Shown in pieces: positions 3,605 through 63,888 of a stretch of 64,000 nucleotides of DNA. Position 1 is the stretch's first letter, and each line of letters opens with the position of its first letter. The stretch is taken from contig CAIMWN010000266.1 in assembly GCA_903845155.1 (NCBI GenBank), forward strand, positions 3,517 through 67,516, written 5' to 3'. This DNA comes from Oligoflexia bacterium. Its GTDB lineage: Bacteria > Bdellovibrionota > UBA1018 > CAIMNF01. The notes under the pieces were generated by a model, which saw nothing but the letters and a program-made list of their open reading frames with translations, ran no database searches and was not told the origin of the DNA. Position numbers and translations under genes: made by a program.

Positions 3605-6295
3605 ATGAAGGCAGCTCAAATTAGATCCAGTTTTTTAGAATATTTTAAGAAAAATGCACATACTGTTGTCGAGAGTTCCTCACTGGTTCCCTCCAACGAC
3701 CCCACGTTGATGTTTACCACTGCGGGTATGGTTCAGTTTAAAGACGTGTTCTTAGGTAAGGATCCTCGTCCTTACACTCGGGCTACCACCTCGCAAAAAT
3801 GTGTTCGCGCAGGTGGTAAGCATAACGACCTGGAAAATGTGGGATTTACCGCCCGCCACCATACTTTTTTTGAAATGCTCGGGAATTTCTCTTTTGGAGA
3901 TTATTTTAAGAAAGATGCCATTCACTTTGCCTGGGAATTCATTACTCAAGAATTGAAGATGCCCAAAGATAAGCTTTATGTCACCGTCTTCGAAACAGAC
4001 GATGAAGCAGCAGATATTTGGCACAAACAAGAAGGTGTTGCGCTGGACCGCATTTATCGTCTCGGTAAAAAGGATAATTTTTGGTCAATGGGCGACACTG
4101 GTCCCTGCGGCCCCTGCACTGAAATTTATTTTGATCGCGGTGAAGCATACGGAAGCGGAGATTTTTTAACCAACGTCAATGCAGGCACTGATCGATACAT
4201 GGAGTTCTGGAACTTGGTGTTCATGCAGTATGATCGAGATTCAAGTGGAAAACTAAACCCACTGCCAAAACCATCGGTCGACACGGGTGCCGGTCTTGAG
4301 CGTATTTCATCCATTCTTCAAAATGTTCCGACCAACTACGATATTGATCTTTTTACCACCATTATTGATAAAACTGCGCAATTAGCGAATAAAGTTTATG
4401 CGCCAAAGTTAGATCCGAAATTAAATGATGAATCGGTGTTTTCGTTTCGTGTGGTTGCCGATCACTCACGCGCTACTACCTTTTTAATTGGGGATGGCGT
4501 CATGCCTTCCAATGAAGGTCGCGGATACGTACTCAGACGAATCATGAGAAGAGCGATTCGTCACGGGCGCAAGCTCGGATTCGATGGACCCTTTCTTCAT
4601 AAGACTTGTGGCTTTGTGATCGAGCAAATGAAAGATGCTTATCCTGATCTCGTCGAGAAAAAGGCATTCATCGAACGAGCGGTCTTAGCTGAAGAAGAAC
4701 AGTTTTTCAAAACACTCGATCGCGGTTTGGGACTGCTGGATGAAGAGCTCGCCAAGCTCAGCAAAAGCCCTGGCAAAAAAGTATTAAACGGTACCATTGC
4801 GTTTACACTCTACGATACTTTTGGATTCCCACTCGACCTCACGCGCACGATCTGTGATGAACGTGGAATTGAGCTCGATGAAAAAGGCTTTGAAGTGTCG
4901 ATGGAAAAACAACGTGAAGAATCGCGTAAGCACTGGAAGGGAACGGGCGACCAAGTTCTCGATGGTCAATGGTTTCAGCTCGTGGATCAATTTAAGAAAG
5001 CAGGAAAACTGCCTGAATTCGTGGGTTATGAGCATAGCGAAGCCAAGGGTGAGGCCCTCGCTGTCATTCCTTCACAAAGTGAACAAGGCGAAGTTACGCT
5101 TGCGATTTTCTCAAAAACGCCATTTTACGGTGAATCCGGCGGACAAACGGGTGACCAGGGTTGGGTGCGGTCCGTGAATGGTGATTTTGAGGCAGAAGTG
5201 CTCGACGCTCAAAGGCCAGTTCCTGAACTCATTGTGGCTCATCTCAAAGTTAAAAAGGGAGTACTCAAAGTTGGCGATCAAGTGGTTCAGCGCGTGAGTG
5301 ATGAAATCCGTTCTCTGACGGCGAGAAATCACACCGCAACCCATTTGCTACATTGGGCGCTCCGTGAAGTGCTGGGTAAACACGTGAAGCAGGCCGGCTC
5401 ACTCGTAACGCCTGCTCTTTTACGCTTTGATTTTTCGCATTTTCAAGCCATGACTCAAGATGAGCTCACTCAAATTGAAAACATGATTAATGAGAAAATT
5501 TGGAAAAATGACCAAGTCAAGAAACAAGTCATGAGTAAAGATGAAGCTATCCAGGCCGGAGCAATTGCATTCTTCGGTGAAAAGTATGGTAACGAGGTTA
5601 GGGTTATTCAAGTGGGTGAATATTCGACTGAGCTCTGCGGTGGCACTCACGTCGATCAAAGTTCTGACCTTCACTTATTCAAGATTTCATCTGAAAGTGG
5701 AATCGCGGCCGGCGTGAGAAGAATCATTGCCTATACATCAAAGGGTGCATTTGAATATTTGCGCAAACAAGATGAAAAATTAAAAGGCATTCGTGATCAG
5801 CTCAAGGCCTCCACAGTCGATGAGATCTCAAATAAAATTGACCGTTTGTTTTCGGACGAACGTGAGCTGAAGAAACAAGTCGAAAAACTGCAATCAGCGG
5901 AGCAAGGTATTGAGATTGAAACGCTTCTTTCAAAAGTGGAAACACTGCAAACCGCAAATGGCGCTGTAAAAGTAATTTCTGGATTGGCCGCAGATTCAGT
6001 AGATGGAATGAAGAAACTGCGCGAGATGGCGGACAAGCTCAAACAAAGGGAGCCTTCGTCGATCGTCATTTTGGGAATTAAAGAACCTGAGACTCAAAAG
6101 CCATTTTTAATTGTAGCAGTTGGCCCGCAAGTAAAGGGGATTTCGGCGGGTGATGTGATTAAAGCAAGCGCGGATAAATTCGGTGGCAAGGGTGGTGGTA
6201 AACCTGACTTCGCCCAGGCGGGTGGAACGAATGCTGCAGGACTTCAAGATGCAGTGGTAACCGCAAAAACTTTTGTGGTTGAACGTTTGAAATAA
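3605..6295 (+). CDS. alaS: alanine--tRNA ligase
   Basis: 896 aa. Class II aaRS motifs and editing-domain HxxxH...CGGTH (TATHLLHWALREV...ELCGGTHV). C-terminal DHHA1-like GGGKPDFAQAGG. Confidence 0.95.
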   Translation: MKAAQIRSSFLEYFKKNAHTVVESSSLVPSNDPTLMFTTAGMVQFKDVFLGKDPRPYTRATTSQKCVRAGGKHNDLENVGFTARHHTFFEMLGNFSFGDYFKKDAIHFAWEFITQELKMPKDKLYVTVFETDDEAADIWHKQEGVALDRIYRLGKKDNFWSMGDTGPCGPCTEIYFDRGEAYGSGDFLTNVNAGTDRYMEFWNLVFMQYDRDSSGKLNPLPKPSVDTGAGLERISSILQNVPTNYDIDLFTTIIDKTAQLANKVYAPKLDPKLNDESVFSFRVVADHSRATTFLIGDGVMPSNEGRGYVLRRIMRRAIRHGRKLGFDGPFLHKTCGFVIEQMKDAYPDLVEKKAFIERAVLAEEEQFFKTLDRGLGLLDEELAKLSKSPGKKVLNGTIAFTLYDTFGFPLDLTRTICDERGIELDEKGFEVSMEKQREESRKHWKGTGDQVLDGQWFQLVDQFKKAGKLPEFVGYEHSEAKGEALAVIPSQSEQGEVTLAIFSKTPFYGESGGQTGDQGWVRSVNGDFEAEVLDAQRPVPELIVAHLKVKKGVLKVGDQVVQRVSDEIRSLTARNHTATHLLHWALREVLGKHVKQAGSLVTPALLRFDFSHFQAMTQDELTQIENMINEKIWKNDQVKKQVMSKDEAIQAGAIAFFGEKYGNEVRVIQVGEYSTELCGGTHVDQSSDLHLFKISSESGIAAGVRRIIAYTSKGAFEYLRKQDEKLKGIRDQLKASTVDEISNKIDRLFSDERELKKQVEKLQSAEQGIEIETLLSKVETLQTANGAVKVISGLAADSVDGMKKLREMADKLKQREPSSIVILGIKEPETQKPFLIVAVGPQVKGISAGDVIKASADKFGGKGGGKPDFAQAGGTNAAGLQDAVVTAKTFVVERLK

Positions 6296-6308
6296 GGAAA
6301 GGAAAATC

Positions 6309-8096
6309 ATGAAGCCAATTAGACTTCGTATTCTCGTAATAGCCGGCCTTGCAATTTCTATTGCGGCTTTCAGTGGATGTACCAATAAAAACGGAAATAA
6401 TGCCAATGTGCTCCGCGTGGGCTTGAAAGATGATGTTAAAACTCTCGATCCTGCTAATGCTTATGATTCGGTAGCGGCGGAAGTTCTCCCTAATATTTAC
6501 GATACTTTTCTTCAGTATAAGTATTTAGAAGATCAAATGACTCTAGAGCCTTTACTTGCAGATGGAATGCCCGAGTATTCAAAAGATGGTCTCACTGTAA
6601 CGGTAAAACTGAAAAAAGGTGTCCTGTTCCAAGATGATCCATGTTTCAAAGCGAACGGCGGCAAGGGCCGTGAATTAAAAGCTCAGGATTTTATCTTCGC
6701 TTTCAAGCGTCTAGCGATTCCAAGCATTCAGTCACAAGGCGCATGGGTGTTTGAAGGAAAGTTAGTGGGCTTTAATGAGTTCGAAAAATCTTTGGCGCAA
6801 GCCAAGGGCGATGAGTATCAAAAACTATTTGATGCGGGAATTTCAGGTGTAGTGGCTAAAGATGACTATACAATTGAGCTTAAGCTGACTCAGCCGTACC
6901 CGATTTTGAATTATATTTTGGCGATGTCGTTTACCTCGCCCATTCCAAAAGAATCGGTGGACATGTACGCAGACAAAGATGGGAACCTTCGTGACCACCC
7001 CGTTGGAACTGGCCCCTATACTTTGAAGAGTTGGGAAACCAATCAAAAAATTATTCTCGTAAAAAACCCTAACTTTAAGGGAACCTATCCTTCAGTGTCT
7101 GGTTCTGAAGCGTTGAAAGGTGCTGGCTTTCTTACCGATGCAGGAAAAGCGCTTCCCTTTATTGAAACGCTGCAATTTGAAGTGATCAAAGAAGATCAAC
7201 CCCGGATTCTTAAATTTGAAAAAGGCGATCTCGATACTTTTGAACTCAGTAAAGATAGCTTTCGTGCATCCATGGCCGATGCAACCCATTTGAATGATGA
7301 TCTGGTTAAAAAAGACGTGGTAGCCGAACACGAGAACTCATTGGTGACTACCTGGGTTGGGTTTAATATGAAGGACAAAATTCTTCAAAATAAATATCTT
7401 CGCCAGGCCCTTTCGTCCGCCATTGATCGTGAAAAATGGATTGATACATTCGAAAAATACATGGGCGAAAAACAAACAGAAATGTGCCCTACGGGACTTG
7501 CAGATCGTGTGGAGAGCAAAGCCATTAAATATGATCTGAATTTAGCGCGAGCAAAAGAGTTAATGGTCAAGGCCGGCTATCCAGAAGGAAAGGGACTCCC
7601 GACCCTCAATATGGATTTCCGAGGAGTGGAAACTCGTTATCGTCAAATGGGTGAATTTTTTGTTCAGCAATTTGGTGCAATCGGCGTGAAAGTAAATGTA
7701 ATCCTCAATACCTTCCCCTCTTATTTAGAAAAAGCGAAGCAGGGTAATTTACAAGTCTCCTATGGTAGTTGGGTGTTTGATTACCCCGATATCGAAAATG
7801 GATACCAATTGCTTTATGGTCCTAACAAATCGCCAGGCCCCAACGATTCAAACTGGGAAAACTCCCAATATGATGCTCTTTATAAAAAACTAGCGATCAT
7901 TCCTGCAGGTTCAAAAGACCGGCAGCAGTTGGCGAAGCAGATGGAAGATATTATTCAAGAAGAGGCTCCTTGGGCCTATGGTTACTTCAAGAAGACTTAC
8001 CGTCTAAGGCAGGGGAAAGTTAAAAACTTCCGTGTAGTAGAGTCAATTGCCAATAAGTACAAGTATATGCGTTTGGAGCAAGTTACAAAAAAATAG
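6309..8096 (+). CDS. ABC transporter substrate-binding lipoprotein, family 5 (peptide/nickel type)
   Basis: Lipobox AFSGC. The ~590-aa length and sequence character resemble OppA/DppA-like solute-binding proteins. No permease gene is adjacent. Confidence 0.65.
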   Translation: MKPIRLRILVIAGLAISIAAFSGCTNKNGNNANVLRVGLKDDVKTLDPANAYDSVAAEVLPNIYDTFLQYKYLEDQMTLEPLLADGMPEYSKDGLTVTVKLKKGVLFQDDPCFKANGGKGRELKAQDFIFAFKRLAIPSIQSQGAWVFEGKLVGFNEFEKSLAQAKGDEYQKLFDAGISGVVAKDDYTIELKLTQPYPILNYILAMSFTSPIPKESVDMYADKDGNLRDHPVGTGPYTLKSWETNQKIILVKNPNFKGTYPSVSGSEALKGAGFLTDAGKALPFIETLQFEVIKEDQPRILKFEKGDLDTFELSKDSFRASMADATHLNDDLVKKDVVAEHENSLVTTWVGFNMKDKILQNKYLRQALSSAIDREKWIDTFEKYMGEKQTEMCPTGLADRVESKAIKYDLNLARAKELMVKAGYPEGKGLPTLNMDFRGVETRYRQMGEFFVQQFGAIGVKVNVILNTFPSYLEKAKQGNLQVSYGSWVFDYPDIENGYQLLYGPNKSPGPNDSNWENSQYDALYKKLAIIPAGSKDRQQLAKQMEDIIQEEAPWAYGYFKKTYRLRQGKVKNFRVVESIANKYKYMRLEQVTKK

Positions 8097-25836: not shown

Positions 25837-26239
25837 CAGTTAAGAATAGACGAATTTTCATCGTGTTAAAACCGCATTTGTGTAAAAGCATTACTCTGCG
25901 TCGTCAGGTGGCCAAAAAGGTGCAATAAAGAGGCATTTTTATGGCAAAGTCTTACGGTGAATCTTAAAGTGTCTAAATGATGACGCCTAAAAGTTGAAGG
26001 AATCGAGGAGTGTGCTTGGTTTCCCCATTAAATTTTCTTAATCTTGAAACGATTTTGAAACACCCAGTGGTTGAGTGCTCCTTGCTCGGCTTGTAAATAC
26101 TCAGTATTTTGTAAGGAATATTTTGCTCTGGTTGAATGTTGCTCACTCAATGATTTTGATTGTTAACATTCTTACACAATCATTATTGACAAAAATAACC
26201 GCCAAGCGTAGTTTCTGGCAAAACAAAGGAGTCTCTCAA

Positions 26240-27793
26240 ATGAAAAAATATGGAAAATTAATGTCAGTAGTTACTACTGCAATGTTTGCGGTGGCATTAG
26301 TCGCTGCGGACGCACACGCACAACGTGGAAGATCGAACGCTGTAAGTTCGCACTCAACGCCAACTTATCATGCACCGGCACAAACTTATCACGCGCCAGC
26401 GCAGCGTGCGGCACCAGTACAGCGTGCAGCACCAGTACAGCACACACAAGCACCAGTTCGCCAACAACCAGCAAGCAATCAGGTAAAAGGTCCTTCAACT
26501 GTTGCTCATCAGCAAAGTACTGCGACTGCAAATCAACACAGTCAACAAGCTACTAAGCCTGCACAACAAAGACCTGCTCAGCAACAACCGGTTAAGCCAG
26601 CTCAGCAAAATAGAACTGCTCAGCAAGGCAGCAAGCCTTCTCAGCAACCTATCCATCACCAAACTGTAACTAACAAACCAAACGGTTCAGTTACTACTCA
26701 AGTGAGACATGGTAATACCATCAAGGCTACTACCGTTACTCCTACAGGAAGAACGAATACAGCTACCTTTAAAGTTGTGAAAGATGCGAATGGTAAAGAA
26801 CGCCAAATTCAAACTGGAGTAGTTCGCCAAAGCAAAAGTGGAAGAGTTACCTCAGAGCAGAAGTTTACTACCGATGCACGCGGCAATAGAACTGGTTATT
26901 CAGTTTCTCGCGGTGGAAAAACAGTATACTCAGTTGAAAATAAACGTTCAGGCGGCATCCGTGTGAGTTCAACTCGCACGTACGTACGTAACAACGTTAC
27001 GATCGTTCGTAATTATAGTTACCGCTCTTACAGCTACGGAAGATACAACTATAGTTACTACCACCCACGTTGGGATAATGGTTACGGCTACTACGGCCGT
27101 TCTTGGTATAACTACTGGTACAATCCTTGGACTAGCCCCTTCACTTATGCTTGGGGTTGGAACGCTTGGGGATATACTCCAGGTTGGGATATTTACTACC
27201 GTGGCTACTACCGCCCATACGACAGCTACAACAGCTTGTCTCTGTGGATGGTGGATTACACCCTTTCTTCTCTCTTAGCAGATTCTTATGCTGCCAGTGC
27301 TGCAGAAGTTGCTGATGCAAACGCAAGAACAGCAGAAGCCAATGCTCAAGCTGCTGAAGCAAATGCTCAAGCCGCTGAATCAGCTCGTATCAGTGAAGAA
27401 GATAAAGCTCAAATCAATCTTCAAGTTCAAGAAATCTTGAAAGCGCGTGCGAACGAAGACGAAAGTCAACGTGCGGTTCCAATGGAGCAAGTACTCTCTA
27501 AACCAGAGCACATCTACATTGTTTCTGAAGACACGACTGCAACTGATGCAAATAAAGTAACTTGTACTCTTTCATCAGGCGACTTACTTACTGCAATTGT
27601 TGGAACCGATGGTGTAGCAACAGTTACTGTGAAGACAGCACAAAGCGATGACTGTGCGGCAGGAACAGTAGTTCAGCTTTCAGCTCAACAATTGATTGAT
27701 TTCGAAAATGATTTCAATACTCGTGTTGATGAAGGAAATGAAAAAGCGAACAAAGATCCAGCGATTCAAAAATTGATTAACCCTAATCAATAA
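26240..27793 (+). CDS. secreted low-complexity protein: Gln/Pro/Ala repeats, aromatic-Asn-Gly-rich block, coiled coil, C-terminal domain
   Basis: AAAGGAG Shine-Dalgarno sequence at 26224–26230, ATG at 26240. Signal peptide. The ORF is open from 26075, but the internal start has the Shine-Dalgarno sequence. Confidence 0.6.
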   Translation: MKKYGKLMSVVTTAMFAVALVAADAHAQRGRSNAVSSHSTPTYHAPAQTYHAPAQRAAPVQRAAPVQHTQAPVRQQPASNQVKGPSTVAHQQSTATANQHSQQATKPAQQRPAQQQPVKPAQQNRTAQQGSKPSQQPIHHQTVTNKPNGSVTTQVRHGNTIKATTVTPTGRTNTATFKVVKDANGKERQIQTGVVRQSKSGRVTSEQKFTTDARGNRTGYSVSRGGKTVYSVENKRSGGIRVSSTRTYVRNNVTIVRNYSYRSYSYGRYNYSYYHPRWDNGYGYYGRSWYNYWYNPWTSPFTYAWGWNAWGYTPGWDIYYRGYYRPYDSYNSLSLWMVDYTLSSLLADSYAASAAEVADANARTAEANAQAAEANAQAAESARISEEDKAQINLQVQEILKARANEDESQRAVPMEQVLSKPEHIYIVSEDTTATDANKVTCTLSSGDLLTAIVGTDGVATVTVKTAQSDDCAAGTVVQLSAQQLIDFENDFNTRVDEGNEKANKDPAIQKLINPNQ

Positions 27794-27852
27794 TAGTCTT
27801 TTGGATTACTAAAATTTACATGACGGGGCGATGGACGATGTTCATCGCCCCT

Positions 27853-28383
27853 TTATTTTTTTAAATCAATAATGATTCGAGCGGGTGAAGTAAGTTCAAA
27901 TACTTCCACCTTCACCGGCACTTCAGTTTTAATGGTCCAAAGCCAACGGTCTTCAACCACAGATGGCACGAATTCAACTTCAGAAACGCTTCGAGTTTTA
28001 CGAGCAGCCTGAATCACGCTTTGAGAAGAAAAATCAATTTTAGGTAAACCATAGAGAGTGACATTAATTTCTTTGGTCACTCGATTCACGCTCACTAAAT
28101 AAAAGGGAGGTCTTGCGAGTTCACTTTTTTCACCTTGGTCGTTACCGGTCAAATCAATTACAATACGATCGTAGCCCGCTGGATTTGGTGCCATGCGGAT
28201 ATTGGTAATATGAAAATCGGAACTCAGGCGGTCGCCACCGGTAAATGCCCCTTCAGTAATATAGACATCTTTTTTCACTTTCAGTGCTTGTCTGAATCCC
28301 TCGGCGTCGAAAGAGGGATTGGCCAGAGTGGTGATTGGAAAGGATAAAGCTAAACCAAGTAACGCGAAAAGTGCTTTTTTCAT
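27853..28383 (-). CDS. secreted hypothetical protein
   Basis: Signal peptide MKKALFALLGLALSFPITTLA. ATGA overlap with the upstream metalloprotease gene. Confidence 0.45.
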   Translation of the reverse strand: MKKALFALLGLALSFPITTLANPSFDAEGFRQALKVKKDVYITEGAFTGGDRLSSDFHITNIRMAPNPAGYDRIVIDLTGNDQGEKSELARPPFYLVSVNRVTKEINVTLYGLPKIDFSSQSVIQAARKTRSVSEVEFVPSVVEDRWLWTIKTEVPVKVEVFELTSPARIIIDLKK

Positions 28384-30098
28384 CTTATGAATAGTTTACT
28401 CGATTTTGTTCTTCTGAAAAGTAGGAAATAAACTTTGGCCCCAATTGCAGTAAGAAAGGGAAGAAACCAAGCTAAGATGGATCCAAGTGGGATTTCTGAC
28501 TTGGGTGGATGCTGGCCATGTTTAAAATTGGCTGCATTCGCATTGCCGCAAAAACCAGCAGCATCTCGCGTGTTACCGGAACTTTTGACAGGTGAGCCCT
28601 CTGGCGACTGATAAACTCCTAGATCATCGGGCGGAGCGCATCTCGCATTACTGGGCAATTCGCTCGGGGCCGCTTTGGGTGAAGCATTGAAGGTAATGAC
28701 AAAATAGGGGACTGAGCTCGGAGTGATCGCGGGGGCCGGAAAGCCAGACGCGTGAGTGGCTTCGGCAGTCACTTTGACTTGAATGGGGCCATAGGCCTCG
28801 CCGGTGATTTTGCTATCAAAGATCTCGAAACTGGATTCTGCCCGATACATTGGGTTGGTGGTTTGAATCGGAATGATTTGTCCGCGTTCATCATAAACTT
28901 CAAGATTCACTTTAATCGGTGAGAGGAGAAGATAGGCGATCCCCGTAATTTGAAAGGGCCCGTGCGCATTGTATTGATAAACTTTAGTGGCCCCGACTTG
29001 AGTGCGGTCGACCAACATATCGGGTGTCGTTCGGATAGAAGAGAGAGGTACTGATTCCAATATTTCCTCACACTGAACTTTCATTTCACCCACTTCGGTA
29101 TTTAAACCTGACTGTACCAGATACTGATTGAGGTTGTGGCCGTCACTCGTGTTGAAATAAGTTGGAAAGCGATTTCCACTGCAGATTTGTGCAAAAGATT
29201 TGGCCTGAACTCCCGTAGGAACGGAATGTGTCGATCCTTGGAAGTGTTCAATCATGAGTGCGACACCCCCCGCTTCAAGGGCCCCAAAATAGAATCGACC
29301 ATTTTGGTCACTGTGAACAGACGCGATTGGAATTCCTCGTTGCTTTGATATTGCGGTGACCATGGCCCCCGCAACTGGATCGCCATTCGGTGCTAAAATG
29401 GTTCCGGTCAACGTACCTATCCCACTGAGATCCGAGGGATAGAGATGTCTCGCGCCGGCCCAGTCATCGCAGCCTATTTTTGATTGCTCTGCGTATTCAA
29501 CATAGAGCATGGAAGAATTGATATTTCCGCTATGGGACAAGCCGATTGCATGTCCAAGTTCGTGGGTGATGATGTTATTGAGGTAAACTTTCGGCCTTGA
29601 AAACTGGTGGTTGTGGCTTGAACTGGTATCATAAGGTGAGTTCGTCAGTTCATAATCGCGATCATTCAGCATGATATCTGCCTCAATGATGTCGCCATTG
29701 TTGCTGTTAAACCATAGTTTCGTGTACCCAATAATATTTTGATCAATGCTTTCTTGGGAGTTTGAAGCAAAGAAAATTGAACTTAAGCCATTATTTTTTA
29801 GGTTAGTTTCGTACTCTCCCGTAGTGCCTTGCCAATAATCAAAATCAACCATCCCGTGCGTGGCCCATTTCCATTGCTGAAGCCCGTCGACGACTGCAGA
29901 TCTAAATAGATCTGAGGGGAATCCGTCTCGTCCGGTAGGATTGCCCGCTAGAAAAAACTTTTGCCCATATTTCCACCGGATTTGCTTGCCTGTATCAGTG
30001 GTGGAAAGAGTATAGGCGAATGAGGTTTGAAGTTCAAAAATGGTCGAGAAGCTGAGCATTAAAAATAGAGGAACTGGCAAGAATTTCATTCGTGACAC
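28380..30098 (-). CDS. matrixin-like (M10) zinc metalloprotease with CarboxypepD_reg-like beta-sandwich and C-terminal hydrophobic anchor
   Basis: HELGHAIGLSHS (HExxHxxGxxH) with Met-turn SMLY. The segment TGTILAPNGDPVAGAMV...DQNGRFYFGALEAGG resembles a carboxypeptidase regulatory domain. C-terminus ILAWFLPFLTAIGAKVYFLLFRRTKSS. Confidence 0.75.
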   Translation of the reverse strand: MSRMKFLPVPLFLMLSFSTIFELQTSFAYTLSTTDTGKQIRWKYGQKFFLAGNPTGRDGFPSDLFRSAVVDGLQQWKWATHGMVDFDYWQGTTGEYETNLKNNGLSSIFFASNSQESIDQNIIGYTKLWFNSNNGDIIEADIMLNDRDYELTNSPYDTSSSHNHQFSRPKVYLNNIITHELGHAIGLSHSGNINSSMLYVEYAEQSKIGCDDWAGARHLYPSDLSGIGTLTGTILAPNGDPVAGAMVTAISKQRGIPIASVHSDQNGRFYFGALEAGGVALMIEHFQGSTHSVPTGVQAKSFAQICSGNRFPTYFNTSDGHNLNQYLVQSGLNTEVGEMKVQCEEILESVPLSSIRTTPDMLVDRTQVGATKVYQYNAHGPFQITGIAYLLLSPIKVNLEVYDERGQIIPIQTTNPMYRAESSFEIFDSKITGEAYGPIQVKVTAEATHASGFPAPAITPSSVPYFVITFNASPKAAPSELPSNARCAPPDDLGVYQSPEGSPVKSSGNTRDAAGFCGNANAANFKHGQHPPKSEIPLGSILAWFLPFLTAIGAKVYFLLFRRTKSSKLFIR

Positions 30099-30124
30099 TA
30101 CGTATCACATCCGTGCCTAATTGC

Positions 30125-30934
30125 TCACTTTTTTCTGTATAAAATGAGTGCAACCCCAAGGACCGCCATAAGAAGTCCTATAGTCAAGTATAGGTAAGTG
30201 TTTGAACTTTTATCACTATTTTTAATATCTTGAGAAGGCTGCTCGGAATTTGAAGCTTGCAAACTTGGGTGGTTCGCACTACTCGCGGGGAGATTTTTTT
30301 TAGTGAAGTTGTTTTGGGCTGGAGGCGGCGGTGCAACTGGTTGCGATACTGGTGTCGCCCCTTGTTCGTGAATTAGTTTTCGTAAATCGGGTAGGGTCCA
30401 CGGTTTCCGGTTCTCGCTGATATCCACTCCGCTTTGGTCTTGATGTGGATCGGAAGAGTGATTCTCTCTTGCGCCGGAATAATTAAAAATTCCTCCCGTG
30501 AGGACCACTTGTCCGTTCTGGTCTTGAAGTCCATACTTTCCAAGTTCAAGTCCGGTCACCTCAAAGGAGTGGTCTTCCTTTTCAGGTCCCAAGAAGAGTA
30601 CGGTTTCTTCTCCCTCGGTAAACTCGGGGGAGCTTGGAATTTCAAGCGTCATTCCATCTTTGGAGCCGCCAATTTTTCTGATTAGAATTCGGTTGAAGTT
30701 GAGGGTACCCTTGAGCACTTCCTTTACATCGAGATTGGCAAAAGTATAAATGGTTTTCCCCCCTTCGTTGGTTAGGCCGTTTTCGACGTGAATATTCGAG
30801 ATCATGCCATGAACGATGAATGCTGTAGACTTCGTAAATTCACTGAAAGGACGAATGTAAAAACTAGTAGCTTCACAGAAGTTGAGTGAGAAGAGGGTTG
30901 CGGTCAGGGATACGAAAAGGAAGTGCAACTTCAT
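30125..30934 (-). CDS. secreted Pro-rich protein with C-terminal TM helix + basic tail
   Basis: Signal peptide from the internal Met (MKLHFLFVSLTATLFSLNFCEA). PPPP-rich linker. C-terminus LYLTIGLLMAVLGVALILYRKK. Confidence 0.45.
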   Translation of the reverse strand: MKLHFLFVSLTATLFSLNFCEATSFYIRPFSEFTKSTAFIVHGMISNIHVENGLTNEGGKTIYTFANLDVKEVLKGTLNFNRILIRKIGGSKDGMTLEIPSSPEFTEGEETVLFLGPEKEDHSFEVTGLELGKYGLQDQNGQVVLTGGIFNYSGARENHSSDPHQDQSGVDISENRKPWTLPDLRKLIHEQGATPVSQPVAPPPPAQNNFTKKNLPASSANHPSLQASNSEQPSQDIKNSDKSSNTYLYLTIGLLMAVLGVALILYRKK

Positions 30935-30963: not shown

Positions 30964-32742
30964 ATGGCACTCGTTCCTCGCTCAGTACTTGAAAAAACTA
31001 AATCAAGCGTCATTTATTTGTTACTGTTTATTTGCTTGATTCTCGCGGTGATGGGTATTTACCGTGGTGGGATTCATTTATCTGAACTCAAAGCTGAAAC
31101 CGTTTTCCTTCCTGATCTTCCCGGAGCAATATTTCTCTCCTTAATGCGAATGACCGCCGCTTATCTTGCCTCGCTAGTATTTGCATATGTGTCAGGAATT
31201 CTTGCGGCAAGAACTGCTATCGGTGAGCGCGTAATTCTTCCGATTCTTGATATTTTACAGTCGGTTCCTGTGGTGGCCTTTTTTCCGGCCGCGATTAGTT
31301 TTTTCATTGGAATTGCCTCAGGTCATCGCATCGGTGTTGAAATGGCAGCGGTGTTTTTAATTTTTACTTCTCAAGCATGGAATATTGGCTTTGCAGTTTA
31401 TGAAGCGGTAAAAGCGATACCTGAGGAAAATGAAGAAGCCGTATCGAGTTTAGGCCTTTCTCAGAGTCAGCGTTTGTTCGGCTTATATATACCAGCATCC
31501 ATTCCCCGCGTCGTTTACAATTCCATGCTTTCTTGGTCGAACGGTTGGTTTTTTCTCGTCGCTTGTGAAATTATTGCGGTGGGTCCAGTAAGGTATAATT
31601 TGCCTGGAATTGGTAGCTTTTTAGCGAAGGCTGCCGAAGACGAAAATATACCGCTCGTGTTGTGGGGGCTACTCGCGCTCGCGGTCGTCATCCTCCTTCT
31701 TGATTTCCTGATGTGGCGCCCACTTCTGATTTGGTCCAACCGCTTTAGGCAAGATGCGACTGCTAATCAAGACGCCGAGGATGTGGGTGTGTTTTTGAAT
31801 CTCCCGAAAACAATTGCAACGCGTCTCTCTTTTTTAACTGAACCGATTCTCAAAATTATTTTTGCCCTCACTTTCCCCATTCGGTGGATGTTCCGTGAAA
31901 TCTTATTTCCACTGTTTTGGGATTTGCCCACCGCACTCCTCTCGGGTCTTTGGTTTGAAGTGAGTCGCCCCGTGGAGCCGCTCTTTCAAAGAACTCAAAA
32001 AATTAGAACCGCGATCGGTTTTTTTGCTTTAGGTTTTTTGGTGGTTCTCGGATTTTTTTATATTTGGAATTCATTTAAGGGGCCGCTTCCTCCGGTCATT
32101 GCTGATATTCCCATGGGCATATTTTATTCGACGATGAGAATTTTTGTGGCGCTTCTGATTTCATTTTCTTGGATTCTGCCGCTCATATATTTTACTTGGA
32201 ATAGGCCTAAAATTCGCCATATTCTGACTACTATTGCCCAGTTAGGAGCATCTCTTCCTGCGACGGCACTCTTTCCGTTGATTGTGCTTGTGGGTGTACG
32301 TCGCTTTGGTGGGGGGATGGATTTTGCGACCCTAGTCCTGCTCACGTTTGGAATTCAGTGGTACATTTTGTTTAATGCAATAGGTGGGGTGGCGATTATT
32401 CCTTCCGATTTAATTGATGCCACTCGAGCATATGGCTTAACCCCATTTCAAACTTTTAGAAAACTTGTGCTTCCGTCCATTAGGCCCGCGCTCATCACGG
32501 GCGCGATCACCGCATGGGGTGGTGGGTGGAACGCGCTCGTAGTGGCCGAATATATTAGTGTTAAAAATCAAGTTATGAAGGTGAAGGGTTTGGGTGCACT
32601 TTTAAGTTATTCGGTGTATGAATTAGGGGATGGAAAGGCAATTTCACTTTGTATTATTGTGATGGTTGCCTGGATTTTAATTTTTAATTTATTATTATGG
32701 CAACCGCTTTACCACCGGAGTTTGGAAAAGTATAAACTGTGA
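30964..32742 (+). CDS. ABC transporter permease, fused double transmembrane domain (NitT/TauT-like)
   Basis: 592 aa. Two BPD-transporter-like halves, each with an EAA-like loop. 12 or more TM helices. Confidence 0.7.
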   Translation: MALVPRSVLEKTKSSVIYLLLFICLILAVMGIYRGGIHLSELKAETVFLPDLPGAIFLSLMRMTAAYLASLVFAYVSGILAARTAIGERVILPILDILQSVPVVAFFPAAISFFIGIASGHRIGVEMAAVFLIFTSQAWNIGFAVYEAVKAIPEENEEAVSSLGLSQSQRLFGLYIPASIPRVVYNSMLSWSNGWFFLVACEIIAVGPVRYNLPGIGSFLAKAAEDENIPLVLWGLLALAVVILLLDFLMWRPLLIWSNRFRQDATANQDAEDVGVFLNLPKTIATRLSFLTEPILKIIFALTFPIRWMFREILFPLFWDLPTALLSGLWFEVSRPVEPLFQRTQKIRTAIGFFALGFLVVLGFFYIWNSFKGPLPPVIADIPMGIFYSTMRIFVALLISFSWILPLIYFTWNRPKIRHILTTIAQLGASLPATALFPLIVLVGVRRFGGGMDFATLVLLTFGIQWYILFNAIGGVAIIPSDLIDATRAYGLTPFQTFRKLVLPSIRPALITGAITAWGGGWNALVVAEYISVKNQVMKVKGLGALLSYSVYELGDGKAISLCIIVMVAWILIFNLLLWQPLYHRSLEKYKL

Positions 32743-33518
32743 CAAATCCTCACTTAAATCAAACTGAAGAAACGATCATTGAAATGAAAAATGTTTCAAA
32801 GAACTTCATGCTCCCTCAGGGGCAGGTGACAGTTCTTGAGAATATTTCTTTCAAGGCGGTAGAGGGTGAGTTTGTCGCCATTGTTGGGCCATCAGGCGCA
32901 GGTAAAAGTACCCTCTTAAGGCTAATGAACGGTCTCCTTGCTCCAAGTGTAGGGAACGTTCTTTATCAAGGTAAAGAGCAGCATGGAATCAATTTTGAAT
33001 CGGCGATGGTGTTTCAAAACTTTGGTCTTTTACCTTGGTTGACTGTCGCTCAAAATATTGAACTCGGTCTTGAGGCGCGAACCAAGGATGCAGCGCTAAA
33101 AAAAGAGAAGGTGAATCGATATATCACCAAAGTAGGATTAGATGGATATGAAGAAGCATATCCGAGAGAACTTTCAGGGGGGATGAAGCAAAGGGTGGGA
33201 CTAGCGCGAGCACTCGCGATTGAACCGTCTTTGCTGCTCATGGACGAGCCATTTTCATCATTAGATGTGTTAACATCTATTAACCTTCGGAACGAATTAC
33301 TCGACATTTGGAGTGATCGAGATAACGTCGTAAATACAATGATCATGGTCACACACATCATTGAAGAAGCGATTGAGCTCGCCGATCGGATTATTATTTT
33401 ATCCAATCGACCGGGTAAAGTTGTGGGGGACATTAAAATTGACTTGCCACGTCCCAGGCAAAAACGTGATAAAAGGTTTATCGAATATGTGGATCGAATA
33501 TTCTCGCTGCTTGCGTGA
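32739..33518 (+). CDS. ABC transporter ATP-binding protein
   Basis: Walker A GPSGAGKST. Signature LSGGMKQRVGLARAL. Walker B LLLMDEPFSSLD. ATGA-type overlap with the permease. Confidence 0.9.
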   Translation: MTNPHLNQTEETIIEMKNVSKNFMLPQGQVTVLENISFKAVEGEFVAIVGPSGAGKSTLLRLMNGLLAPSVGNVLYQGKEQHGINFESAMVFQNFGLLPWLTVAQNIELGLEARTKDAALKKEKVNRYITKVGLDGYEEAYPRELSGGMKQRVGLARALAIEPSLLLMDEPFSSLDVLTSINLRNELLDIWSDRDNVVNTMIMVTHIIEEAIELADRIIILSNRPGKVVGDIKIDLPRPRQKRDKRFIEYVDRIFSLLA

Positions 33519-33560
33519 TTTATTAGAATTTTCAGTTCGAGATGGTATAACGGAGTACAT

Positions 33561-34082
33561 ATGAAATCATCGGAGGGGGATACGGTTCCCCCACAATCGC
33601 TTCCTGAAATTGGCATTAGCCAGATATTGGGTTTGGTAGAATTACTTATCGGTAAAGAGGGTGCTCGTGAAGACATCTATCGCTTAGCAGGCGAACTCTC
33701 GATGGAGCTTGGTGAAACACTCACCGTCATCAAAGCAGCAGAAATGCTCGGCCTCGTTCACACTCCAGGTGGAGATGTGGTCGTAGAGGCTTTTGGAACT
33801 AAAGTAATTGATGCCAGCATTCCTGAGCGAAAAGAACTCCTTCGCGAGAAAATTGAATTACTTCCCGTTTTCAAAAAAGTACGCGAATTTTTAGCGACTG
33901 AAGAAAATCACGAAGTGACCCGTGAACAAGTCTCAGAAAAGCTCGCAGAACTCATTCCCAATGAAGATGCAGAATCATCGTTTAGTACGCTCGTAAACTG
34001 GGGCCGCTATGCAGAATTGTTTGGGTACAATGATGATTCCCAGACGTTTTATTTAGATACAGACGAAGATCGCGGCGAATAG
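33561..34082 (+). CDS. hypothetical cytoplasmic acidic protein, possibly ABC-transporter accessory
   Basis: 173 aa immediately downstream of the ATPase. No motif recognised with confidence. Confidence 0.35.
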   Translation: MKSSEGDTVPPQSLPEIGISQILGLVELLIGKEGAREDIYRLAGELSMELGETLTVIKAAEMLGLVHTPGGDVVVEAFGTKVIDASIPERKELLREKIELLPVFKKVREFLATEENHEVTREQVSEKLAELIPNEDAESSFSTLVNWGRYAELFGYNDDSQTFYLDTDEDRGE

Positions 34083-62652: not shown

Positions 62653-63888
62653 TCAACGATTGGAGTTGGTTCGCTCGGGGCGAATCATTTCGAAAATGAT
62701 CATGAGGTGATCACCAAACTGTTGGTAATGAGCCAGCTTCGTAAAGAGAGTGCTGGAATTTCCCCACGTTTTATCCTGTTCCCCATAGGTGGTTTCTTCG
62801 AAAAGATAAACATGATCGTAGAGCCCATTTTTTAGCTCATCTTGAATGTTCTTTGGGTCCTGTTTGGCAGTACCGATGGTCATTGCACCCAATCCCAAGG
62901 AAGTAAATTGAACTGGACGGTCATAAATGATGAGGATTCGCTTGGTGTGTTTTTGTTCGATGAAATCGACGAGGAAATGAATGTCTCTATTCAGCGTAAG
63001 CGTGTTCACGAAATCCGTATTGATCGCTTGCGGCGCAAAAAGCACAAGACTGATCAGTGAATAAAGCAAGAGTTGCCCCTTTGCTTTTGGAAAGTAGCGT
63101 GCAATAGCGGTGAATGCGAAAAGGCTAGTGGCAATCGCAAAAGGAATGAAAAGTCGAATTTGCGTTGGATGATCATAAACTCCGGCATGGTGACTCAACA
63201 CAATCAGCATCTGAATAATGAGGGGGATAATGCAAAACCAAGTTTCGGCTAAACCAAAACGGAATTTTTTATAAAAGATGCACGCAATTCCCGCTCCAAT
63301 CATAGTGAAGGTGGCAATTGAGTTATAGGGCAGATTGAATTTGAAAATTCCTTTCACCATCACTCCTAAATGTTGAAGGATGTGTTGAAGTGAGAATGCA
63401 GCTTCATCTGGCGCATTTTCGAAGGAATTAGGAGTGAGTGCTCGTTGCCAGATGTGGAGAGACAGGGTGGCAACCCAAAACCAGATTTCCCAACGGGTAA
63501 AAATGAGACGGGCTTTCTTGCTGAGGATGGCTGCCATTAAAATCATGATTCCTGCGAGGAGTGGATTCTCGTAACGAATGTGAGAAAATGCAACTAAGGT
63601 GAGTAAAAAACAAGAAAGGGTTGCATTTGCACTTTCACTCTCTATTTCTCGCAACCATGCGAGCCCAAGCCAAAGAGAGGCAAAGAAAAAAGCGCTGGAT
63701 ACAATGTCGAAACCGCATGAAGTGGCAAAAATAAGAAAAACAGGTTGCGCAAAGAGGATCATGAGTGAAGAAATCGTTGAAATCATTGAGCGTGTAGCCG
63801 AGTAAGCTTTCCACTGAACCAAAATCGAAAATAGAAAGGTAACAAACAAATTCACGATCACTGCCGAAGACATTTTTACGCCGTTCAC
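62653..63888 (-). CDS. polytopic membrane protein, possibly GT-C-type glycosyltransferase-like
   Basis: Nine or more TM helices followed by a ~100-aa soluble C-terminal domain. No motif assigned with confidence. Confidence 0.3.
   Translation of the reverse strand: MNGVKMSSAVIVNLFVTFLFSILVQWKAYSATRSMISTISSLMILFAQPVFLIFATSCGFDIVSSAFFFASLWLGLAWLREIESESANATLSCFLLTLVAFSHIRYENPLLAGIMILMAAILSKKARLIFTRWEIWFWVATLSLHIWQRALTPNSFENAPDEAAFSLQHILQHLGVMVKGIFKFNLPYNSIATFTMIGAGIACIFYKKFRFGLAETWFCIIPLIIQMLIVLSHHAGVYDHPTQIRLFIPFAIATSLFAFTAIARYFPKAKGQLLLYSLISLVLFAPQAINTDFVNTLTLNRDIHFLVDFIEQKHTKRILIIYDRPVQFTSLGLGAMTIGTAKQDPKNIQDELKNGLYDHVYLFEETTYGEQDKTWGNSSTLFTKLAHYQQFGDHLMIIFEMIRPERTNSNR

Follow-up and report, generated by a model that had tools for sequence, protein, structure and literature searches.

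A Bdellovibrionota operon for a matrixin-like metzincin, a probable cognate inhibitor or trans-acting prodomain and an AMIN-like protein, with a cysteine-bearing tail on the protease

A 64,000-nucleotide stretch of DNA from an Oligoflexia bacterium (contig CAIMWN010000266.1; hereafter the window), part of a 161-kb metagenome scaffold (ENA ERZ19045875, scaffold_134), carries three tightly packed head-to-tail genes on its minus strand (30934→27853). They encode a membrane-anchored partner protein (gene 1), a matrixin-like metzincin (gene 2) and an AMIN-like protein (gene 3), and together may form an envelope proteolysis module. It would consist of a protease of the matrix metalloproteinase (MMP) type, a latency partner with a fold like that of the tissue inhibitors of metalloproteinases (TIMPs), an AMIN-like protein and a cysteine-bearing processing or sorting tail at the C-terminus of the protease. 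We put the probability of this reading as a whole at roughly 0.55. Gene content, folds, conservation and linkage are its observed basis, from which we infer inhibition, a role for the N-terminal threonine of the partner, peptidoglycan targeting and processing of the tail.

The original prediction, made from the sequence alone, described a three-gene exported operon, and we arrive at the same description. The genes are co-oriented and packed, all three products have signal peptides, and every examined Bdellovibrionota locus has the same gene order, which indicates that the arrangement is not due to chance. Gene 1 (30125..30934) encodes 269 amino acids (aa) from an ATG, as in the public gene call, or 281 aa from an upstream GTG. 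Gene 2 follows after a gap of 26-35 nt (28380..30098; 572 aa from a GTG, or 569 aa from the ATG at 30089 in public gene calls), and its stop codon overlaps the start of gene 3 (27853..28383, an open reading frame (ORF) of 176 aa) in an ATGA at 28380-28383 that had also been pointed out before. The closest homologs are only 49-56% identical, and all named full-length relatives come from metagenome-assembled genomes (MAGs) of Bdellovibrionota (Bdellovibrionales, Oligoflexia or Bacteriovoracaceae).

On the basis of its sequence, gene 2 can be assigned with confidence to the matrixin-like (MEROPS M10A) metzincins. In an alignment of 63 sequences the zinc-binding motif HELGHAIGLSHS (aa 179-190, 29529..29564) contains the invariant residues H179, E180, G182, G186 and H189, and H183, S190 (the Ser that follows the third His in matrixins) and Met197 of the Met-turn (29508-29510) are at least 90% conserved. 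The protein consists of a signal peptide, the catalytic domain, two β-sandwich domains and the Cys-bearing C-terminal tail. It is matched by Pfam Peptidase_M10 (PF00413, 31.8 bits, cutoff 24) and, at aa 229-293 (29220..29414), by a CarboxypepD_reg-like β-sandwich model (PF13620, 37 bits, cutoff 32.3). The catalytic domain of the AlphaFold model (predicted local distance difference test (pLDDT) 88.4, predicted TM-score (pTM) 0.84) superposes on MMP-3, MMP-13 and karilysin at a TM-score of ~0.7 in Foldseek. Motif conservation, both Pfam matches and this superposition bear out the MMP-type motif, the Met-turn and the carboxypeptidase-regulatory-like domain named in the original prediction. The protease lacks a PRCGxPD cysteine-switch prodomain: Y29, its first mature residue, already opens the catalytic domain. 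An R-C (aa 486-487) and a G-F-C-G motif are found near its C-terminus instead. The gene 2 product is, as judged from these features, an active-looking MMP-type zinc protease without a prodomain of its own.

The gene for the partner protein is closely linked to this protease. A profile hidden Markov model (HMM) of the partner matches in 23 Bdellovibrionota loci, in 22 of which the match lies directly upstream of the protease on the same strand; the 23rd was scored as downstream, which is probably an ORF-calling artefact. Partners are also found in other phyla, in 23 of 61 loci bearing only a distantly related matrixin-like gene. There they are always on the same strand and within 212 bp, 17 of them upstream, 2 downstream and 4 fused to the protease in a single ORF (signal peptide-partner-M10). 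The partner-bearing groups comprise Acidobacteriota, Gemmatimonadota, Latescibacterota, Verrucomicrobiota, Ignavibacteria, Planctomycetota, Hyphomicrobiales, Thermodesulfobacteriota and a Thermoplasmatota archaeon. No partner match occurs away from matrixin-like genes in 1.35 Mb of loci. In an exhaustive profile search 6,415 cluster representatives reach E <= 1e-3, of which 794 reach E <= 1e-10, and no model in Pfam, NCBIfam or PHROGs matches the family.

The fused ORFs show that in some lineages the partner domain is the N-terminal domain of the protease. Single-ORF fusions are located at L086:8912-10792, L061:1634-4885, L075:2703-4988 and 5233-7656, and L068:3317-5383 (L numbers denote loci), and are laid out as a signal peptide, the partner (OB) domain, ~200 aa and the M10 catalytic motif. 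Those of L061 and L075 also have dockerin-like repeats.

The partner is highly conserved at its mature N-terminus. The signal peptide of gene 1 (aa 1-22, ending in LNFCEA; 30869..30934) has a predicted cleavage site before Thr23 that fits the -3/-1 rule (C-E-A|T). The mature protein would begin with T23-S-F-Y-I-R-P-F-S-E-F-T, an almost invariant stretch that opens a β domain with OB-fold (aa 23-~150, 30485..30868; conservation and Foldseek). S24 is invariant in 54 sequences, in which A22, T23 and F25 reach at least 90% conservation. The A-x-A|T junction recurs in orthologs and in partners of other phyla: A-x-A|T-(S/T)-hydrophobic stands right after the signal peptide in 21/22 Bdellovibrionota, and most partners of other phyla have A-x-A|T-(T/S/I/V)-hydrophobic at this junction. 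In the AlphaFold model (pLDDT 81.5) the signal peptide is followed by a short helix, the β domain (aa 39-147, with its long hairpin), two helices, a linker and a transmembrane helix. The best Foldseek matches in the PDB are chains of TIMP-2 (2e2d_C from an MMP-13 complex, 1br9, and 1bqq_T from an MT1-MMP complex) and the NTR domain of complement C3 (6xzu_B). The description of this protein as Pro-rich holds for the linker (aa ~191-242, 30209..30364), a disordered Pro/Ser/Gln-rich segment of ~50 residues with pLDDT 43-56, no secondary structure and no sequence conservation; it fails for the main part, which is a folded β domain.

Taken together, the partner is probably a cognate protease inhibitor or a prodomain supplied in trans, because it is genetically locked to the protease, is fused to it in places, accompanies a protease without prodomain and presents a conserved residue 1 on an OB-fold. 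Several observations weigh against this view. The Foldseek match to TIMP-2 is weak (E 3e-3, TM-score ~0.38) and stands ahead of, and among, generic OB-folds. Comparison with the N-domains of TIMP-1 to -4 by hhalign gives a probability of 0.2%, and a profile search of the PDB with gene 1 comes back empty, without any TIMP; on these two results we rejected a sequence link between partner and TIMPs. The alignment contains no conserved Cys in the mature partner, and the Cys1-x-Cys3 start and the disulfides of TIMPs are absent. The conserved Thr could also be structural instead. Moreover, in Listeria the TIMP-like protein is cut free by the protease as its substrate and is no demonstrated inhibitor (PMC8235301).

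The Listeria precedent leads to a different role, in which the partner is a substrate or cargo: the protease would cut the linker, and the freed OB-fold domain would be the active species, for instance one acting with the AMIN-like protein on the cell wall. The Listeria protein Tim is membrane-anchored and cleaved by the metzincin Mtz, and the freed TIMP-like fragment alters cell-wall properties (PMC8235301). In the operon described here, a disordered linker of ~50 residues likewise separates the partner domain from its anchor, and a probably peptidoglycan-binding protein is co-transcribed. However, most partners of other phyla are ~190 aa long and have neither anchor nor linker, so that no release step is needed, the N-terminal fusions to the protease resemble prodomains, and the conserved residue 1 marks the N-terminus and not the linker as the functional end. 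We consider a substrate or cargo role in place of inhibition decidedly unlikely; inhibitor and substrate roles are not mutually exclusive.

The third protein may locate the module. Gene 3 encodes a signal peptide (aa 1-21) and an AMIN-like domain (aa 59-175; PF24837, 28.9 bits, cutoff 27), and the classic AMIN model PF11741 scores just under its cutoff (20.1 vs 20.5). The small secreted protein of the original prediction is exported, as proposed, and can now be specified as an AMIN-like domain protein. In all 25 Bdellovibrionota loci whose sequence reaches far enough, its gene lies directly downstream of the protease; it is absent beside the protease in the examined loci of other phyla. The AMIN domains of AmiC and PilQ bind peptidoglycan, and by analogy the gene 3 product is probably peptidoglycan-binding as well and would bring the module to the cell wall.

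The C-terminal tail of the protease starts with an ordered segment containing Cys487 (R-C) and Y496-x-S-P-x-G-x-P (aa 487-505, 28584..28640; alignment and model). Here R486, C487, Y496, S498, P499 and G501 are at least 90% conserved, P503 is invariant (63 sequences) and pLDDT reaches 94-96 over aa 481-500. The cysteine motif G515-F-C517-G518 (28545..28556), with an invariant C517, sits in a disordered stretch (aa 509-534, pLDDT <50). It is followed by a variable low-complexity spacer (aa 519-535, 28494..28544; pLDDT <50), the hydrophobic helix IPLGSILAWFLPFLTAIGAKVYFLLF with W544..P547 (aa 536-561, 28416..28493; alignment and model) and the basic, predicted cytoplasmic tail RRTKSSKLFIR (aa 562-572, 28383..28415). 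A Cys between SPxGxP and the helix is present in 102/102 family members, as GFCG in 70, GFCA in 10 and GGCG in 6. The spacer ranges from 9 to 58 aa (median 23) in the family, the median length of the hydrophobic core is 16 aa, and a median of 14 residues with ~5 K/R lies beyond the core. The helix usually starts with (I/L)xGW(F/L)xP(F/W), often GWxLP, and has an invariant P547 and a W544 that is at least 90% conserved (63 sequences); some distant orthologs, L016, L023 and L026 among them, no longer have this W/P motif. In the model the helix spans aa 538-571, with block pLDDT values of 84-92 to about aa 560 and of 52-74 at the extreme C-terminus.

Two groups of relatives deviate at this end of the protein. 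The last ~45 aa of L016 (Bdellovibrionia MAG) and L023 ('Bacteriovorax stolpii' MAG) read (S/T)GCA(R/P)G, a Gly/Ser-rich stretch and GL(L/V)LLGA(M/V)LRQLPAWLKRLTL(K/R)(S/A); the Cys is retained, although a normal transmembrane helix would need a longer hydrophobic run, and no current explanation of the tail fits. In L024:4238-6361 and the 778-aa protein P0052, protease and AMIN-like protein share one ORF: reading continues in frame from the protease tail to the Met of the AMIN-like protein, whose signal peptide is intact. These joint ORFs are either read-throughs after loss of the overlapping stop or assembly errors, twice independently; we rejected these 'fusions' as evidence on the tail, since the AMIN-like Met and signal peptide are kept, as in read-throughs.

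The tail of gene 1 is different. It comprises a transmembrane helix and RKK (aa 244-269, 30128..30205; helix 244-268 in the model), and in the family a hydrophobic core of median 18 aa is followed by ~3 residues, all K/R, and the stop; the tails close with 2-3 K/R right at the stop. Its sequence varies in 58 homologs and 22 orthologous loci without any family-wide motif, apart from a juxtamembrane 'SPLYF..WY' stretch common to one close subclade. With the LPXTG model TIGR01167 the whole protein reaches 14.7 bits (cutoff 15.9) and the isolated tail 17.2. The alignment covers only profile positions 8-32, i.e. the transmembrane and basic part, and no LPXTG-like pentapeptide is conserved in the 58 homologs; on these grounds an LPXTG/sortase identity was rejected. 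A homolog from a Gram-negative organism, P0090, has the JGI name 'LPXTG-motif cell wall-anchored protein' and is without an LPXTG motif; the name seems to be an annotation artefact of an LPXTG HMM scoring the transmembrane helix and basic end. Judged by its sequence, the gene 1 tail is a plain, variable stop-transfer membrane anchor.

The original prediction saw the same tripartite-looking tail on both proteins and left open a variant sorting signal or simple anchors. Helix and basic end are indeed present in both, but the two tails differ and the invariant Cys had been overlooked. For gene 1 the simple anchor stands, whereas the protease has a conserved, Cys-bearing tail that belongs to no known signal family. 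The invariant Cys and the conserved helix motif indicate that this tail has a function beyond anchoring.

In distant relatives of the protease the equivalent C-terminal position is taken by MYXO-CTERM, PEP-CTERM or a type IX secretion system (T9SS) type A domain. The protease clade is thus habitually surface-sorted by whichever system the host has. Curated cutoffs are exceeded by L041, L060 and L032 for MYXO-CTERM, by L063 for PEP-CTERM and by L067 and L049 for T9SS, and since real signals are recognised in distant relatives the sorting-signal searches have power. The relatives listed in this three-system clade include Betaproteobacteria (L063, L054) and Myxococcota/'Deltaproteobacteria' (L041, L048, L059, L060, L062, L032, L047), and further L067, L049, L053, L043, L066, L064, L035 and L082. 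The last, a Thermoplasmatota archaeon MAG, has a T9SS-like C-terminus by eye.

When applied to the operon itself, the same models are silent. The scan with sorting-signal HMMs that had been suggested as a check gives no match above cutoff to either tail in whole proteins. As anticipated, the PEP and GG motifs are absent, and PEP-CTERM (TIGR02595) and GlyGly-CTERM (TIGR03501) do not match the tail of gene 1 or gene 2. The absence of a sorting-enzyme gene from the window, likewise anticipated, extends to 82 kb of scaffold. As judged by these searches, the protease tail is a member of no described signal family.

A number of findings argue against a sorting function of the protease tail. No NCBIfam/TIGRFAM sorting-signal model matches it or 15 other family tails. 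Its spacer of 9-58 aa sets it apart from known intramembrane-processed signals, which are described as having none; signals cut by membrane-embedded enzymes abut the helix and occur on many unrelated proteins (Haft preprint). An HMM of the tail finds only orthologs in the 1.35 Mb of loci, of which ~0.5 Mb are from Bdellovibrionota, with the next-best match at 10.8 bits. In these ~0.5 Mb a generic scan detects no further exported protein with Cys, transmembrane segment and basic C-terminus, and a CPBP motif regular expression, a crude test, detects no CPBP-like ORF. No CPBP, rhomboid, exosortase or sortase is found among the membrane proteins of the window or in the 82 kb of scaffold. The contrast in conservation of the transmembrane windows is modest (0.27 for the protease vs 0.21 for the partner), and the 'Bacteriovoracaceae'-type L016 and L023 have a hydrophobic stretch of only ~10 residues. 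A tail unique to these proteins and the lack of a sorting enzyme in the genome had been named beforehand as the outcome that would speak against sorting, and within the ~0.5 Mb of related loci and the 82 kb of scaffold this is what was found. A search of a 5.8-billion-protein collection with the tail profile was without power, as it returned nothing at E <= 10, not even the tail's own family. Because distant relatives carry bona fide MYXO-CTERM, PEP-CTERM or T9SS signals, sorting of the protease is still plausible.

If nothing is sorted, both tails would be permanent inner-membrane anchors and the protease a bitopic periplasmic enzyme resembling MT-MMPs, with Cys517 serving as a zinc-capping switch or in a disulfide. 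This is in line with the unmatched signal models, with the failure to find a second client or a sorting enzyme in the loci and scaffold searched, with the long spacer and with the 14-residue cytoplasmic tail past the helix; the partner is in the same membrane, where the pair can meet. The protease has five invariant or near-invariant cysteines (C210, C306, C343, C487, C517), an odd number, so that one may be unpaired, and the motif ends in C-G, as do the cysteine switches of MMPs (PRCGxPD) and ADAMs. On the other hand, an invariant Cys and conserved W and P across ~30% identity are needless for an anchor, the anchor of the partner being unconstrained, and the relatives have true sorting signals at the equivalent position. 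AlphaFold docks the GFCG stretch nowhere (pLDDT <50), and a switch in cis would make an inhibitory partner partly redundant. Permanent anchoring is a possible arrangement, though we hold it to be rather unlikely.

A second alternative keeps sorting and takes the tail for a bona fide, divergent MYXO-CTERM. The closest named HMM family to the protease, 'myxosortase-dependent metalloprotease MXAN_2677/2678', matches the catalytic core with 44 bits, the Myxococcota/'Deltaproteobacteria' relatives pass the MYXO-CTERM cutoffs, and Myxococcota tails have in common with the protease tail the layout of G-x-C, a Gly/Ser/Pro-rich stretch, a helix and an Arg cluster. Locus L027, an intermediate relative (E 2e-99), ends in ACAGC, 13 residues, a helix and RRRRR. 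Nevertheless, TIGR03901.2 and TIGR03382 match neither the window tail nor 15 other family tails, basal ones included, at E <= 10; the one tail that they do list is that of L027, which alone scores 7.5 bits vs a cutoff of 20. The median spacer of 23 aa exceeds the 8-11 residues that separate Cys and hydrophobic core in genuine MYXO-CTERM relatives, counted by eye. MYXO-CTERM genomes have dozens of clients (PMC11980579), of which none is seen in the loci scanned, and published surveys confine the signal to Myxococcota and Bradymonadales. No CPBP gene occurs in the accessible sequence, and none of the myxosortase type in the flanks of 24 orthologous loci. Myxosortase genes are not normally adjacent to the genes of their clients. 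We regard a divergent MYXO-CTERM as very unlikely. A lineage-specific Cys-dependent signal is plausible, and our best guess is a processing or sorting signal of this kind that arose from, or converged with, the MYXO-CTERM-type tails of the relatives.

The envelope module that we favour would work as follows. The sequences support export of all three proteins through Sec via their N-terminal signal peptides, and a halt of the C-terminal helices of the gene 1 and gene 2 products in the inner membrane with their basic ends in the cytoplasm. The tethered OB domain of the partner would cap the protease and hold it latent, most likely with its free N-terminus lodged in the active site in the fashion of TIMPs and serralysin inhibitors, and the AMIN-like protein would tie the assembly to peptidoglycan. 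The protease may then stay bitopic and periplasmic, or its Cys-bearing tail may be modified or cut, so that the enzyme leaves its partner and is both relocated and activated. The tail would thus serve first as an inner-membrane anchor and later for release or re-anchoring away from the tethered partner. A bolder version makes the partner the founder of a large cross-phylum family of metzincin inhibitors or trans-prodomains, TIMP-like but independently arisen, with the α-amino group of Thr on the zinc, and the tail a new long-spacer Cys-dependent sorting signal. Such a signal would imply a processing enzyme other than the known kinds of intramembrane protease. In this full form we find the proposal doubtful.

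Of all the leads from this analysis, the partner family, widespread and unannotated, is the most valuable. To our knowledge, endogenous inhibitors of MMP-type enzymes are few, namely the animal TIMPs and, in bacteria, potempin A and the poorly understood Tim of Listeria. The partner family has thousands of members and no database model, and its tight genetic link to matrixin-like proteases holds from Acidobacteriota to an archaeon. If the partner is an inhibitor or latency domain, it would explain how prodomain-less MMP-like enzymes are controlled in many prokaryotes and would provide new scaffolds for MMP inhibitors. The invariant-Cys tail is a concrete candidate for an undescribed sorting system in Bdellovibrionota, a phylum of predatory bacteria to whose lifestyle surface proteases are central.

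The operon lies in a region of housekeeping synteny with lon, proC, rpoZ, smpB and ksgA. An origin from phage, as in Listeria, was rejected on account of this synteny and the lack of a PHROG match. Downstream, a GC-rich hairpin between convergent genes (27825-27851; 12-pair stem with 8 GC pairs, T-run on the plus strand) is likely a terminator for the operon and for the gene on the opposite strand. That gene (26075..27793, plus strand) encodes a 547-572-aa protein with an N-terminal hydrophobic segment and no Pfam match, containing Gln/Pro/Ala-rich repeats (HAPAQ.., QQPVKPAQQ), a Tyr/Trp/Gly-rich block YSYRSYSYGRYNYSYYHPRWDNGYGYYGRSWYNYWYNPW and ANAQAAEANAQAAE repeats. The syntenic loci L004-L007 have lon at this position, and the gene looks like a lineage-specific replacement. 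On the other side, a divergent ATP-binding cassette (ABC) transporter (30964..34082, plus strand) is NitT/TauT-like; its double permease is a fused protein of 592 aa, and it further has an ATPase and an AAA_assoc_C protein. The start codons of gene 1 and of the permease are ~30 bp apart, with an equal gap in L004 and L005, so that the promoters must sit within the neighbouring coding regions. The transporter adjoins the operon only in closer relatives (L004, L005, L008-L010) and is elsewhere or absent in others; we rejected it as a component of the system and regard it as a neighbour. A 9.5-kb contig of the same organism (L003, ENA ERZ19040237) has an identical AMIN-like gene, a protease split into ORFs of 292 and 234 aa and a partner called at only 108 aa, which could be a strain-level pseudogene or the result of assembly frameshifts. 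Beside the ftsQ/ftsA/ftsZ cluster, a polytopic membrane protein with at least 6 hydrophobic segments (62653..63888, minus strand) runs past the window (567 aa in the scaffold, L089:7627-9330) and is without any Pfam or NCBIfam match.

The module varies kinds of system that are already described, namely bacterial MMP-like proteases that are co-transcribed with an OB-fold protein, and Cys-type C-terminal tails. Among sorting systems it is closest to MYXO-CTERM with myxosortase (MrtX, CPBP) and to the other Cys-containing C-terminal signals JDVT-, Synerg- and CGP-CTERM, with which the protease shares an N-terminal signal peptide and a tail made up of an invariant Cys in a Gly-rich context, a helix and an Arg/Lys cluster, and distant relatives of the window protease bear genuine MYXO-CTERM tails. 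It differs from MYXO-CTERM in that its tail is matched by no HMM, has the Cys 9-58 aa (median 23) away from the helix instead of abutting it, contains an extra GWxLP helix motif and ends in a longer cytoplasmic part. Furthermore, the tail is found on one protein family only, in a phylum outside the described range and with no CPBP in the searched sequence.

Among protease-partner pairs, potempin A (PotA) of Tannerella forsythia is a small, membrane-anchored OB-fold protein that is encoded upstream of karilysin, is co-transcribed with it and inhibits it (PMC9890683). The gene order is the same here, with a membrane-anchored OB-fold protein encoded immediately upstream of an MMP-like protease. 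In contrast, PotA is an outer-membrane lipoprotein with an N-terminal lipobox Cys and inhibits through a 'bilobal' loop arrangement and not via its N-terminus, whereas the partner described here would have a free Thr1 and a C-terminal transmembrane anchor; there is no sequence similarity, and PotA is outside the top 50 Foldseek matches. Listeria monocytogenes combines the metzincin Mtz with the TIMP-like lipoprotein Tim, which Mtz cleaves and frees (PMC8235301). There the protease gene comes first, and the pair stands in a phage or mobile-element context, unlike the module in its syntenic housekeeping region without PHROG match.

The vertebrate pair of TIMP-2 and MT1-MMP resembles the module in combining an MMP-fold protease tethered by a C-terminal transmembrane helix with an OB-fold protein that has a long β-hairpin and a conserved free N-terminus, and TIMP-2 chains are the top structural matches of the partner, with weak scores. 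The partner, however, has Thr and not Cys as residue 1, no disulfides, no TIMP C-terminal domain and no sequence homology to TIMPs, and is itself membrane-anchored. Finally, the serralysin inhibitors Inh/AprI of Erwinia, Serratia and Pseudomonas are periplasmic proteins encoded in the protease operon that shield the cell from its own metzincin, their N-terminal residues being inserted into the protease with the α-amino group at the zinc. Inh is a soluble eight-stranded β-barrel unrelated in sequence to the partner, and serralysins leave the cell by type I secretion. What the two systems have in common is an operon-encoded periplasmic protein and, for the partner as we propose it, an action through the N-terminus.

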